The notes: generated by a model not told the origin, from the sequence alone. Shown: positions 7,482-11,164, counted from the stretch's first letter. The stretch: 26,333 nt of DNA from Candidatus Aenigmatarchaeota archaeon (GCA_044343545.1 JAWBZR010000009.1:1-26333); one strand, 5' to 3'. Numbers and translations are program-made.

Positions 7482-7730
7482 CTATTCAGCTAATTTGGCG
7501 ACAAACTCTTCATCGATTTTTTCTACTTTTATTTTTACTTTGTTGAGCGGTTTTGTTGCCCCTCTCGTCCAAATGGCTTGAGAAATAGAATTATCTAGTT
7601 TTATCTTGTCAGTTTTCATTCTTTTCTTCAAAAAATTCCTCACAACTCTAATTGCATGTTTGCTTCTTTCCCATCTTGGTTTCTCCAAAATACTTTTTCT
7701 AATATTTATTGTAAAAATCATCTCGGCCAT
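7482..7730 (-). CDS. rpl31e: 50S ribosomal protein L31e
   Basis: FTINIR..PRWERSKHAIRVVRNFLKKRMK..IKLDNSISQAIWTRG; ATG 7730 preferred over GTG 7739. Confidence 0.95.
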   Translation of the reverse strand: MAEMIFTINIRKSILEKPRWERSKHAIRVVRNFLKKRMKTDKIKLDNSISQAIWTRGATKPLNKVKIKVEKIDEEFVAKLAE

Positions 7731-7753
7731 AAACATCACAATAAATGAATGAT

Positions 7754-7789
7754 ACCATCACAGGTTACTGGCTTTGGCAATTCAGGCCT
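7754..7789 (-). other. 3' arm of the pre-23S processing stem with canonical BHB
   Basis: RNA AGGCCUGAAU-UGCC-AAA-GCCAGUAACCUGUGAUGGU pairs with 10944-10979. Confidence 0.93.
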
Positions 7790-8254
7790 CTCGGGCGATT
7801 AGTAGCGGTAGGCTGAACATCTCGGGCGCACCCTTGATGCTTACACCTCCGCCCTATCAACCCCATCGTCTATGGGAGCCCTCGTCACATAACCGCTTGT
7901 TGCCAAGCAGCTATGTGAATTGCCGTCTCTTATTTGGGGATGGCTTCCCGCTTAGATGCTTTCAGCGGTTATCCATTACGGCGTAGCTACTCGGCGATGC
8001 ATGAACAACCGATACACCAGAGGCCGCGGCCGGGCGTTCCTTTCGTACTCGCCCGACCTTCCCCTCAGACGGCAAACACCACCAATAGATACCGACCGAA
8101 CTGTCTCACGACGTTCTGAACCCAGCTAACGTCCCCTTTTAACCAGTGGACACCTGTACCCTTGGCTGCTACTGCACAGCCAGGTGAGGGGGAGCCGACA
8201 GCGACGGAGCAACACGCTTCGTCGATATGGACTCTCGGAAGCTACGACCCCATT

Positions 8255-8282
8255 TTAGGGGAGAGTATCGAAGCTACTCTCT
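8255..8282 (-). other. 28-nt BHB mini-intron B2 after U2449
   Basis: A-GAGAGUA-GCUUCGA-UACUCUC-CCCU-AA; CCCU pairs with exon GGGG; removal together with B1 restores GGGGAU|AAUGGGGUC. Confidence 0.8.
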
Positions 8283-8388
8283 TTAGGGTGCTGGATCTGC
8301 GATGCTAAAAGGTTTTTTCTCAAAAGCTAAATTCCTCTGCAGTTTGGTGGGGTGGTATCAATCGGGTTAGATCTTACACAGATCCATT
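8283..8388 (-). other. 106-nt BHB/BHL intron B1 after U2449
   Basis: 10-bp terminal stem UGGAUCUGUG/CGCAGAUCCA; ends in CCCU-AA|A like B2; no ORF. Confidence 0.8.
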
Positions 8389-8397
8389 ATCCCCGAG

Positions 8398-8430
8398 TTC
8401 GCCGTATGAGAGCAACCAGCTCATCATACT
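8398..8430 (-). other. 33-nt hairpin intron A after C2440
   Basis: Interrupts AAAAGCUAC|CUCGGGGAU; GUAUGA/UCAUAC stem; AC|A and AA|C junctions fit relaxed BHB geometry. Confidence 0.85.
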
Positions 8431-9725
8431 GTAGCTTTTCTGATACCACCGGCACCCATTGAGGGCAACCGATGTATCGCTAACCCACGCTTTCGCGGCT
8501 GGATTCCTTGTTGGCCAGAATCCAGTCAGGCCAGCTTTTGCGTTTGCACTCTACTCCCGATTTCCGACCGGGATGAGCTGACCTTTGGGCACCCTTGATC
8601 TATTGTCAAGGGTGTACCGCCCCAGCCGAGCTGTCCATCAAGCGGTGTCCCGCTGTCGCGGTTAGCATTACAATTGAGAAAGGGTGGTGTTCCAACGGCC
8701 TCTCAGTTGGACCCGGAAGCCCAACCTAATAGCGAGTCCCACCTACACTCTGCATTCTCAATCGTAATGCAACGCCAGACTACAGCAAAGCTCTACGGGG
8801 TCTTCGCTTCCCATTGGTGGTCTCTGGCCTATTCACCAGAATGGCAGGTTCACTAGGTTCCGGGTTGGGACAGCGAGGAAGTCGTTAAGCCATTCAAGCG
8901 GGCCGTCAATTAAACGGCAAGGGATTACGCTACTTTACGACGGTCAGAGTTACCGCCGCCGTTTACCGGGGCTTAGCCCGATTGGACTCGGGTTTCACAC
9001 ACCGGCACTGGGCAGGCATCAGGGACCATACACAACATTTCTGTCTAGCGGTCCCCTATGTTTTTGTTAAACAGTCGCTTCCTCCTTGTCACTGCGACCT
9101 ACACTCCCTGTGAGGAGTATAGGCACCCCTTCTACCGAAGATACGGGGCGAGATTGCCGATTTCCCTAACCCGGAGTAGCCTAGCACGTCTTCGCCTTCT
9201 CAGCGAGGGCACCTGTGGCGGTTCTCGGTACGAGTGCAAGGAATCCTTTCAAGGACCATTTTCACGGCCTCAAGGAATCGATCAAACTTGGCTTAAGCCA
9301 AGCTCATCCCATTTTCACCTGGTTCTCCTCATAACGAGACTCCCCAGGCTTGGATGGTTGACTTGCGTTGACCTATCCCCAAGGGTCTGGTCCTTGACTT
9401 GCGTCGCCGCACGTATCCTTGCAGTATCCGAATATTAACGGATTTCCCTTTCCCCAAGCTATGTTAACGCTTGCGGTTAGGATCGACTAACTGCCAGCTG
9501 ATCGACATTGCTGGCAAAACCTTGCCCTTTAGACGGCTGAGGTTCTCACTCAGCTATGCTGCTACTAGTGTCAGGATTTTCATTCCCGGACGATCCACAC
9601 GATCTTACGACCGTGCTTCTGCTCATCCGGGACGCCTCCCTACCACCTCTTTCGAGGTCCAAGGTCTCGGTAGCTGGCTTAGTGCCTTCCATTTTCAGAG
9701 CCCAAACCCTCGGTGGGTGAGCTGT

Positions 9726-9809
9726 TTTGCGGTGATGAAATTCATCAATCAATGGCTTAATCTTCACGCAATTCAGGTGACCGTCGTAATTTCATCGAAC
9801 TTCATCACT
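9726..9809 (-). other. 84-nt BHB intron C after A1095 (H44, GTPase-associated centre)
   Basis: UGCG-UA|A-GUGAUGAAG...UUUCAUCAC-CGCA-AA|A; removal restores GAGUGCGUAACAGCUC. Confidence 0.92.
9745..9798 (-). ncRNA. intron-encoded box C/D guide sRNA (predicted Cm1920, Um1971)
   Basis: C UCGAUGA 9798-9792, D' CUGA 9776-9773, C' GUGAAGA 9767-9761, D UUGA 9748-9745; 12-nt and 10-nt perfect antisense to 8935-8946 and 8885-8894. Confidence 0.85.
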
Positions 9810-10943
9810 TACGCACTCTTTAAAGGATGGCTGCTTCTAAGCCCACCTCCCCACTGTCTAAGGGTTTGGACATCTTTCGTCGTTTAGCCAGCATTTTGGC
9901 ACCTTAACCTTGGTCTGGCCTGTTTTCCTCTCGGATACCGAGCTTACCCCGATATCCTCACTATAGCCATCTACGACGACAGAGGATTCGGAGTTTGACA
10001 GGATAGCTGAGCCTTTCGGCCCTTGACTATCCAATCAGTAGCTCTACCCCCCTGTCTGTCTCCGGCTATGCTGTACTGAGGTACATTTCGGGAGGAACCC
10101 GCTATTGCCGGACTCGATTGGCTTTTCACCCCTAACCCCAGGTCACCCGAGTGGTTGGTTCCCAACACCGGTAGCAGACCTCCATCTGGCTTTCGCCAGA
10201 CTTTGTCTTGCCCAGGGTTTGATCGTCCGGCTTCGGGTCTTATCCAAGTGATTTCGGGCACTATTCGTACCCCGCCCCACGCTATCGCTAGCTACGGGCT
10301 GGTCGCTTTCGCTACGCCTTTCGGCTCACCACTTGGATAAACTCCCTGACCCATTCTTCGAAACGGACGGTGCAACCCTGCTTACGCTTAGGAGCCGCAC
10401 CTGACTATACCTACTTGGCTTCGGGCTCTTTTCACCGGCCGTTAGGCCTACTTTTCAGCTTTCTCTCATGATACTTGTTCGCTATCGGACTAGAGTTATA
10501 TTTAGGGTTGGATGTCAATGACACCCATCTTCCCGATCCAAATTCAAGGACCGGTACTCTGGATACTTGGCATCACCTTTCTTGCCTTCCTCTACGTGGC
10601 TTTAACACTCTATGGCGTGGCATTTCAGCCAACTTCGAGTCGGCAAGCGAAGGCGGACCCAAGTCCAAAACTCCACATCCGCCTTAACTTTTCGCTAAGG
10701 CGTTCGGTTTGCCCTTTGCCGCTTTCACTCGCCGTTACTCACGGCATCTCGTTTGATTTCTTTTCCTGCGGGTACTAAGATGTTTCAATTCCCCGCGTGG
10801 CCCTTCCCTGCCGGGAATGCAAAGGGGATTTCCCATTCGGAGACCTTGGGTTCAAAGGCTGCGTGCGCCTACCCCAAGCTTTTCGCAGCTTACCGCGTCC
10901 TTCATCGGTACTCTAGCCAAGCCGTCCACCAAGTAGGGTGAAT

Positions 10944-10979
10944 AGGCCTGAATTATTGCCGCCAGTAACCTGTGACGGT
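10944..10979 (-). other. 5' arm of the pre-23S processing stem with canonical BHB
   Basis: RNA ACCGUCACAGGUUACUGGC-GGCA-AUA-AUUCAGGCCU gives 19 bp / 3-nt bulge / 4 bp / 3-nt bulge / 10 bp with 7754-7789. Confidence 0.93.
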
Positions 10980-11000
10980 TTCATAATCGTGCTAATACTC

Positions 11001-11048
11001 GCAACGCTCAACCCATTCTTCACTCAACCACGTTAGGTGGAGAGTTGC
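11001..11048 (-). other. structured pre-rRNA leader element with C'/D-like (K-turn/K-loop) motifs
   Basis: GCAAC/GUUGC closing stem, CCAC/GUGG hairpin, UUGA-GUGAAGA-AUGGG-UUGA. Confidence 0.55.
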
Positions 11049-11067
11049 ATTTATTATAAACTTTATT

Positions 11068-11129
11068 AGGCTCAAAAGGTGTCCTCCTCTTCATTTATAC
11101 TCAGAGAGACAGTTCGGCTATCATCGCCT
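11068..11129 (-). ncRNA. box C/D guide sRNA in the 23S leader (predicted Um2552, Am2600)
   Basis: AGGC/GCCU termini; C GCGAUGA, D' CUGA, C' AUGAAGA, D UUGA; guides antisense to 8096-8107 and 8148-8155. Confidence 0.88.
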
Positions 11130-11156
11130 TGCAATTTAATTTTTATAGACTCTAAT

Positions 11157-11164
11157 TATTTAAA
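11157..11164 (-). promoter_or_regulatory. TATA box for the sRNA/pre-23S transcript
   Basis: TTTAAATA about 27 nt upstream of the sRNA 5' stem, with a purine-rich segment further upstream. Confidence 0.6.

Follow-up and report, generated by a model that had tools for sequence, protein, structure and literature searches.

A 23S rRNA gene of an aenigmatarchaeon likely to carry methylation guides for its own functional centres

The stretch of DNA analysed here (the window) is a whole contig of 26,333 bases from Candidatus Aenigmatarchaeota archaeon (GCA_044343545.1, JAWBZR010000009.1), belonging to an assembly of 651 kb in 22 contigs that is 90% complete. It holds a 23S ribosomal RNA (rRNA) gene on the minus strand, and in our judgement this gene is likely to form a stand-alone transcription unit that carries methylation guides for its own functional centres. 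Two units with the architecture of dual-guide box C/D small RNAs (sRNAs) are embedded in it, one in the 5' leader and one in the first of four small introns, and all four of their guides match the 23S rRNA of the same locus, in agreement with what a sequence-only reading of the window had claimed. C/D guides, introns of the bulge-helix-bulge (BHB) type and BHB processing stems are all familiar from earlier work; it is the location of the guides that stands out.

An Rfam search identifies the archaeal 23S rRNA (2512 bits over the full model, 1-2987) on the minus strand at 7779-10954. Apart from the 23S, the contig has a single RNA gene, tRNA-Arg (14086-14160), and the earlier statement that 16S, tRNA-Ala and 5S are not adjacent is borne out, as none of the three was found on the contig by the RNA-gene search. 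No 16S was found anywhere in the 651-kb assembly and the 5S gene sits on a separate contig (C11), which leads us to regard the 23S gene as unlinked from the other rRNA genes.

Box C/D sRNAs of the 23S leader and first intron

The elements that carry the argument are listed below, with positions counted from the first base of the window.

7779..10954, minus strand: 23S rRNA gene, 3176 nucleotides (nt), or 2925 nt without its four introns
11157..11164, minus strand: TATA-like box TTTAAATA, read from the sequence, with a putative promoter role
11068..11129, minus strand: leader box C/D sRNA, a 62-nt unit about 30 nt downstream of the TTTAAATA box
11124-11118, minus strand: C box ATGATAG of the leader sRNA
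11117-11105, minus strand: D' guide of the leader sRNA, 13 nt
11104-11101, minus strand: D' box CTGA of the leader sRNA, then a 6-nt linker
11094-11088, minus strand: C' box ATGAAGA of the leader sRNA
11087-11076, minus strand: D guide of the leader sRNA, 12 nt
11075-11072, minus strand: D box TTGA of the leader sRNA
Ends of the leader sRNA, minus strand: terminal stem, AGGC (5') with GCCT (3')
8104, minus strand: predicted methylation site A2600 in helix 93 (H93), leader D' guide
8152, minus strand: predicted methylation site U2552, first base of the A-loop, leader D guide
9726..9809, minus strand: intron 1, 84 nt, between E. coli A1095 and A1096 in the GTPase-associated centre
9795-9789, minus strand: C box ATGAAAT of the intron-1 sRNA
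9788-9777, minus strand: D' guide of the intron-1 sRNA, 12 nt
9776-9773, minus strand: D' box CTGA of the intron-1 sRNA, then a 5-nt linker
9767-9761, minus strand: C' box GTGAAGA of the intron-1 sRNA
9760-9749, minus strand: D guide of the intron-1 sRNA, 12 nt
9748-9745, minus strand: D box TTGA of the intron-1 sRNA
8943, minus strand: predicted methylation site C1920 in helix 69 (H69), intron-1 D' guide
8892, minus strand: predicted methylation site U1971 in helix 71 (H71), intron-1 D guide

The leader D' guide makes 12 contiguous Watson-Crick pairs with the 23S rRNA of the locus and the leader D guide makes 8 contiguous pairs, with two more beyond one mismatch; the intron-1 guides make 11 (D') and 10 (D) contiguous Watson-Crick pairs. 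Methylation falls on the fifth paired nucleotide, a rule that was used to call the four predicted sites. The two leader targets are 48 nt apart and the two intron-1 targets are 51 nt apart, the latter lying about 780 nt from the intron. E. coli numbers were obtained by aligning the spliced 23S with an E. coli copy that runs three ahead of the usual numbers and were corrected for it, the offset of 3 nt being judged from known landmarks. For intron 1, whose insertion was defined by comparison with intron-less relatives, the aligned E. coli copy gives 1094/1095, and the A1095/A1096 numbering is one that we take from the 1051-1108 fragment. The sequence-only reading had named H69, the A-loop and H93 as the places at which the guides are aimed, and pairing together with the E. 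coli alignment agrees, adding H71. In published work, H68-71 and H90-93 are given as hotspots of archaeal methylation and U2552 as a predicted target in 5 of 7 species (PMC7994747, PMC4644070); all four predicted targets fall inside these hotspots.

Within the genome the two units are alone. A dual-guide pattern applied to both strands of the 651 kb gave two matches, the leader and the intron-1 sRNAs, against 0, 0, 0, 1 and 0 matches with a guide of at least 9 nt in five shuffled-target controls. With a looser C/D scan there were 29 matches (15-25 in 8 controls), among which the leader and intron-1 sRNAs alone have guides of 11-12 nt or two guide matches, apart from two others that have a single 11-nt match. 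A plain scan for 10-mer antisense beside YTGA was set aside as too noisy (103 matches, 51-91 in controls). Both sRNAs keep the G3A4/G3A4 box positions, their spacers are 13/12 nt (leader) and 12/12 nt (intron 1), and fibrillarin, Nop5 and L7Ae are encoded in the genome. Taking boxes, spacers, guides and partner genes together, we class both units as archaeal box C/D sRNAs whose expression and methylation activity are predicted.

The leader guide is found upstream of the 23S gene in all 12 family loci that were compared. Its guides and boxes are invariant across these loci and the terminal stem varies by compensatory pairs (94% paired, with 4 of 6 pairs altered on both sides, a degree reached by 0 of 500 shuffles). 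Canonical boxes have a G-C pair between C-box position 6 and D-box position 1; here an A faces a U at these positions in 11 of 12 leader sequences and in 5 of 5 intron-1 sequences. Covariation extends to guide and target in two genomes (G031 and G026), in which the guide reads GGGCACC and the A-loop GGTGCCC. A covariance model built from the leader unit (R1) matches 42 of 117 genomes of the order and 21 of 151 in a phylum sample, with one match outside the order. Within the family, a match is present in each of the 11 relatives whose 23S is assembled and also in G015, in which the 23S was not found, and the 10 family genomes that have no match are all ones that have no assembled 23S. The distance from the match to the 23S gene, always on the same strand, is 108 nt in the present genome, 88-105 nt in 11 family relatives, 142-157 nt in 3 genomes of other families and 133-308 nt in 8 of 8 further matches that were fetched, which places all 22 checked matches of relatives 88-308 nt ahead of a 23S gene. 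A survey of this kind in DPANN leaders and introns had been proposed along with the earlier claims, and it shows a leader guide that is order-wide, with each checked match in a 23S leader. The sole extra match in the order, on contig C3 of G012, was rejected as a chance match; it lies inside an open reading frame of 336 aa and no D box stands at the proper place.

A TTTAAAT box stands at the equivalent place of TTTAAATA in three same-genus relatives, and the known archaeal distance from TATA box to start, which is the ground for the proposed promoter role, would have transcription begin some 4-8 nt before the leader sRNA. Neither a conserved TATA box nor a conserved T-tract was found among family members in the interval between sRNA and 23S. 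In G075, of another family (f2), each guide has a C/D unit of its own, with a conserved hairpin between the two units, and other leaders from outside the present family (f1) have the same guide words arranged differently. The present family has both guides fused in a single double guide.

The boundaries of intron 1 coincide with BHB cut points (central helix TGCG/CGCA, 4/4, bulges TAA and AAA, inner stem of 13 base pairs (bp)). Intron and guide occur in 5 of 23 family genomes, namely the present one, three same-genus relatives with a 23S and one genome of another genus; a search of the 23 genomes with the whole intron-1 sRNA found nothing beyond these five intron-borne copies. Across the five, 96.7% of the cells of stem and BHB are paired and 9 of 18 pairs are altered on both sides, and in the central helix an exon change is matched by a compensating change in the intron.

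Related arrangements were seen in other families. In G040 (L007) and G036 (L020), GACCGUCGUA in H69 is directly followed by mini-introns of 45-47 nt, at the site that corresponds to position 2019 of the present 23S; they carry GGCGGUCAU-CUGA, the guide word for C1920 of intron 1, beside its target; the C1920 guide may thus occupy different introns in different families. At the site that corresponds to position 2393 of the present 23S, six loci of other families (L007, L020, L017, L015, L021 and L012) have introns of 83-212 nt that contain C/D-like units, one example being AATGATA ... TTGA on a long stem. In five of the six, a guide of 9-10 nt, (C)GAGGTAGCT or GGTAGCTTTT, finds its complement in the host 23S; the L020 intron has a related word, for which there is no 9-nt match to its host 23S. 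L007 and L020 also have hairpin introns of 50-51 nt at the site that corresponds to position 2725 of the present 23S. These have no C/D boxes, and the loop is complementary over 14 nt (L020) or 9 nt (L007) to another stretch of the host 23S, presumably near E. coli 2058-2070. For the small subunit, neither the dual-guide pattern nor the looser scan gave a convincing C/D unit in the 16S loci of five relatives; a single 9-nt guide candidate lies inside an insertion in the 16S of G003.

Processing stem, introns and RNA of close relatives

The elements predicted to be cut are the following.

10954..10979, minus strand: 5' strand of the processing stem, with outer helix 10979-10961, central GGCA 10960-10957 and bulge ATA 10956-10954
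7754..7788, minus strand: 3' strand of the processing stem, with inner helix 7788-7780, central TGCC 7779-7776, bulge AAA 7775-7773 and outer helix 7772-7754
8398..8430, minus strand: mini-intron of 33 nt after E. coli C2440, a hairpin with unique boundaries
8283..8388, minus strand: intron unit B1, 106 nt, after U2449
8255..8282, minus strand: intron unit B2, 28 nt

The processing stem is a canonical BHB, with a central helix of 4/4, an inner helix of 10 bp, an outer helix of 19 bp and a 3-nt bulge on each strand, the two bulges being separated by 4 bp. The splicing endonuclease cuts after the second nucleotide of a bulge, and the predicted cuts are thus 10955/10954 and 7774/7773, giving a pre-23S rRNA from 10954 to 7774. 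Three metatranscriptome runs (X7 and X16, which belong to one study, and X17 from a second) and one DNA run (X1) were compared with the region. RNA contigs in X7, X16 and X17 each join 10953 to 7773, which, given a one-base ambiguity at the joint, equals 10954 to 7774. In the DNA run the joint 10954/7774 was absent, and reads passed through both flanks. Close relatives of the organism therefore show a circular pre-23S rRNA that was cut exactly at the predicted positions. Tang et al. (2002) are said to have described BHB processing stems and circular pre-rRNA in archaea.

Four introns occupy three sites, as insertions of 84, 33 and 134 nt relative to intron-less relatives, and their removal restores conserved rRNA sequence. 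A lenient BHB pattern proved no rarer than chance (278 matches, 220-305 in 20 shuffles) and was dropped as evidence; as it does not discriminate, the case for the introns rests on the fit at boundaries set by comparison. Five splicing-endonuclease substrates, the stem and four introns, had been claimed, and they do not fare alike. The stem and intron 1 fit, and so does B2 once B1 has been removed; the 33-nt intron is relaxed (central 3/4, inner 6), and G013 has at this site a 32-nt counterpart whose hairpin covaries; B1 is off register. The 134-nt insertion (8388-8255, after E. coli U2449 and beside A2451) consists of two units in tandem, one of 106 nt and the other of 28 nt, each ending in CCCTAA. 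Treating it as a single intron was rejected, as no inner helix forms. B1 has a central helix GGGG/CCCU of 4 bp and a terminal helix TGGATCTG/CAGATCCA, and B2 forms a canonical BHB with the exon GGGG (4/4, inner 7) after B1 is gone and not before, so that removal of B1 and then B2 would be the simplest reading of the order. The same tandem layout is seen in G013 and G020, both from another genus, in which the first unit is about 875 or about 920 nt long and has ends homologous to B1, and two other genomes have single canonical introns of about 124 and about 129 nt at the B1/B2 site. On account of these layouts, the most likely reading of B1 is a mobile intron that has shrunk and has lodged in the B2 splice site. 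No copies of B1 were found elsewhere in the genome.

Within B1, 10 nt at 8355-8346 (TGATACCACC) are complementary to the exon GGTGGTATCA at 8450-8441, upstream of the 33-nt intron, and have no C/D boxes beside them, and B1 ACCCG is complementary to exon CGGGG. The minimum-energy fold pairs B1 with exon stretches, bridging both exons round the 33-nt intron; such pairing could act as a splicing scaffold. The peptidyl-transferase motif, which is GGGGAUAACAGG in most organisms, is GGGGAUAAUGGG at 8385-8381 and in 8 of 8 aligned relatives, and G011 retains AACAGGG there.

With regard to splicing in RNA, the match of two contigs of about 95% identity ends precisely at the 3' splice site of intron 1 (9726), which is a weak hint, from contigs of relatives, that intron 1 is spliced. 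A joint from 9726 to 9826 was discarded as splicing evidence; 15 other letters stand between its sides and its depth is 9, which points to a more distant organism. EndA is encoded by a single gene (177 aa, N- and C-terminal domains) and RtcB is also encoded. We take the size and domain layout of EndA to be those of the homotetramer type, known for its strict BHB needs. The view that one precursor is processed by EndA and a ligase thus holds to the extent that both are encoded and that the RNA joint of relatives falls at the stem cuts; it falls short at B1, which is non-canonical.

Extent of the unit and rival explanations

Two further elements bear on how far the precursor may reach.

11001..11050, minus strand: conserved leader element, composed of ATGC, a covarying hairpin, GNRAAG and (U)UGA
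7482..7739, minus strand: rpl31e, with a likely start at ATG 7730 and a T6 tract after the stop

The hairpin of the leader element has four pairs with compensatory changes. It had been called a K-turn element, a name that we do not retain: the UGA/GA pattern is not conserved in 12 family members (GUGAAG, GCAAAG, GCGAAG and GUUAAG are found) and the 5' strand has no conserved GA. A similar GATGCA-hairpin-GAAG element is present in 16S leaders of relatives (L029, L031, L033 and L034), and the element may be a shared signal of pre-rRNA processing or assembly.

The large-subunit protein gene that had been reported is indeed present: L31e is recognised by PF01198 with 44.7 bits (gathering cut-off 25) at 7482-7730/7739. 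The gap from the stem to its ATG is 28 nt, with no A/T-rich box at a suitable distance, and, as the T-tract after the stem is weak in this genus, read-through from the stem into rpl31e would be plausible. It is only in the present genus (g1; 3 of 3 relatives) and in one other genome, G011, that the gene stands behind the 23S; in other genera T5-T7 tracts come directly after the stem. This restriction, with the tracts elsewhere, means that rpl31e is not a conserved part of the unit. RNA contigs did not cover the leader at 11068-11300, rpl31e at 7400-7661 or the span across 8255-8430, which is uninformative either way. A bacterial-type promoter and terminator scan was discarded as uninformative for an archaeon. 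A single precursor reaching rpl31e, and the expression and release of the guides, are thus predicted from the layout of the locus.

Around the unit, an upstream cluster at 11243-13700 on the minus strand encodes S19e, a PDCD5-like protein, L37Ae, an RpoP-like zinc ribbon, Pcc1, prefoldin beta and UPF0147, so that the 23S is flanked by two ribosome-related clusters, this set upstream and L31e downstream. On contig C15 of the relative G013, the 16S (7131-9170) shares a strand with the leader sRNA and 23S (235-5086) and precedes them by about 2 kb; the rRNA genes of G013 are thus loosely linked, in contrast to the present contig.

As we picture the likely course of events, transcription would start a few bases upstream of the leader dual-guide sRNA, and the 23S would begin about 110 nt after it. 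L7Ae, Nop5 and fibrillarin would assemble on the leader sRNA. As soon as the A-loop and H93 have been transcribed, the guides of this sRNA would pair with them and lead to 2'-O-methylation of U2552 and A2600. The dual guide of intron 1, on its 13-bp stem, would direct methylation of C1920 (H69) and U1971 (H71). EndA would cut the BHB of the processing stem and RtcB would circularise the pre-23S; the same two enzymes would also take out the four small introns, freeing the intron sRNA, probably as a circle. The guides may act before or after their release.

Several observations weigh against this account. The boxes of both sRNAs are non-consensus (AUGAUAG with UUGA in the leader, AUGAAAU with UUGA in intron 1), and their Rfam matches are sub-threshold; for the leader, the match to sR1 (RF01152), the nearest Rfam family, scores 22.5 bits (gathering cut-off 45; E = 0.0003-0.0006 in a small search space), and the leader sRNA is not a member of that family. 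The dual-guide pattern also takes canonical boxes, and it was written after both sRNAs had been seen. The leader D guide is down to 7 contiguous pairs in genus g10, and in genus g9 (G016 and G012) the U of the A-loop has become C with the guide unaltered. As 16S is absent from the assembly, guides against it could not be looked for. The RNA contigs are about 5-8% divergent from the window and come from relatives, not from the present organism, and their gap over the leader counts on the same side. The layout of EndA, of the homotetramer type, is at odds with intron outer helices of only 0-3 pairs and with B1, which has an internal loop where its 5' bulge should abut the inner helix and has no inner helix in the canonical register.

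A bolder form of the account seems to us possible, if rather unlikely. It holds that in this order the guides for the catalytic core are built into the pre-23S and act in cis on the nascent chain before EndA releases them, and that in this genus the 23S would itself be a giant BHB 'intron', the ligation of leader to trailer creating an rpl31e mRNA headed by a C/D ribonucleoprotein. If true, the rRNA would supply its own modification and folding machinery, and L31e synthesis would be coupled to each round of 23S production.

It is improbable, in our estimate, that the embedded elements are mainly antisense chaperones in cis, whose guide pairs clamp H92/H93 and H69/H71 and for which methylation is secondary or absent. 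Both are double guides with targets at the short distances given above, a class with a proposed chaperone role (PMC4644070), and in every checked genome they are covalently linked to their target; B1 holds a 10-nt antisense to a nearby exon with no C/D boxes, and the guide mismatch is tolerated in genus g9. Nevertheless, complete C, D, C' and D' boxes are kept at the spacing of 12-13 nt that positions fibrillarin, and fibrillarin and Nop5 have been retained in a genome of 651 kb. A pure chaperone needs no such box geometry, and the conservation of the boxes therefore counts against this explanation. Guiding and chaperone roles are not mutually exclusive.

Another view would regard the sRNA, the 23S and rpl31e as separate neighbouring genes, each with its own start and stop, brought close by genome compaction. 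The restricted occurrence of rpl31e after the 23S and the T5-T7 tracts of other genera speak for it, as does the A/T-rich TTTATAAT between sRNA and leader hairpin in the present genome, and the RNA contigs do not link the parts. Yet in 12 family genomes the distance between sRNA and 23S stays within 88-108 nt, no copy of the leader sRNA was found elsewhere in any genome, the family genomes that have no match being those with no assembled 23S, and neither the A/T-rich stretch nor T-tracts between sRNA and 23S are conserved. The intron sRNA is not transcribable apart from the 23S, and the gap from the stem to the rpl31e ATG is no more than 28 nt, all of which makes this view very improbable. The weakest explanation, functionless chance matches in an A/T-rich spacer and intron, could appeal to the non-consensus boxes, the sub-threshold Rfam matches and the commonness of short antisense in the 10-mer scan, but it is already contradicted by the conservation data and we give it practically no weight: the full architecture occurs twice in the genome and no more, the guides of 10-12 nt are invariant across genera as their flanks vary, the stems covary and the position is kept in every relative's match that was checked.

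Comparison with known systems and meaning

In full-text searches, which were indirect and covered main texts, we found no paper on guides in rRNA leaders or introns. The closest relative of the intron-1 sRNA is the C/D guide within the intron of pre-tRNA-Trp in Euryarchaeota (Haloferax volcanii; Pyrococcus sR50) (PMC7994747), and a C/D-like RNA is reported from the tRNA-Met intron of Nanoarchaeum equitans (PMC3491384). As in the tRNA-Trp intron, a complete C/D unit sits in a BHB intron that would be excised by the endonuclease and is aimed at the host RNA; in contrast, the host is 23S rRNA, the targets are about 780 nt off and a second guide lies in the 5' leader. As contexts of archaeal guides, reviews name tRNA introns, sites adjacent to tRNAs, polycistrons and independent genes (PMC7994747, PMC3608112).

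Archaea are known to have free-standing double-guide C/D sRNAs whose targets lie in H68-71 and H90-93, U2552 among them (Dennis et al. 2015, PMC4644070). The present sRNAs resemble them in box order, 12-nt spacers, targets less than 100 nt apart and hotspot sites. Unlike those, which are independent or lie beside tRNA or protein genes, they are found within the 23S unit, with AUGAUA/AUGAAA and UUGA as boxes.

Archaeal BHB processing stems and circular pre-rRNA intermediates are described for Euryarchaeota and TACK (PMC7714728, PMC10515664, bioRxiv 10.64898/2026.03.23.713588). The present locus agrees with them in the canonical BHB of the stem flanking the 23S and in a circular junction at the bulge cuts, and differs in the DPANN-type genome, the unlinked 23S and the guide RNA in the leader. 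Archaeal rRNA introns are documented in the 23S of Desulfurococcus mobilis and the 16S of Thermoproteales (PMC3608112, PMC4496867). The introns found here are likewise of probable BHB type at conserved functional sites, some with relatives of homing-endonuclease size at the same site; unlike the known ones they are 28-106 nt long, two stand in tandem at one site and one bears a guide RNA. Whether archaeal rRNA introns give non-coding RNAs was left open in a 2013 review (PMC3608112).

In eukaryotes, intron-encoded small nucleolar RNAs (snoRNAs) are hosted in genes of the translation apparatus (PMC7994747). The likeness is that guides would be made from a host transcript tied to ribosome synthesis. 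Eukaryotic snoRNAs have mRNA or non-coding hosts and spliceosomal introns, whereas the host here is the target rRNA itself and release would be by the tRNA-splicing endonuclease.

The relatives' RNA extends BHB-dependent circularisation of pre-23S rRNA to close relatives of this DPANN lineage. Separate guides in one family and fused guides in another show a route of guide-gene evolution. Guides within the leader and intron of their own target rRNA would tie guide supply one-to-one to rRNA synthesis, and such self-carried guides would help to explain how a genome of 0.65 Mb keeps marks as essential as Um2552 with very few guide genes. Finally, the unit offers a natural system for asking whether archaeal guides work co-transcriptionally and as folding chaperones.

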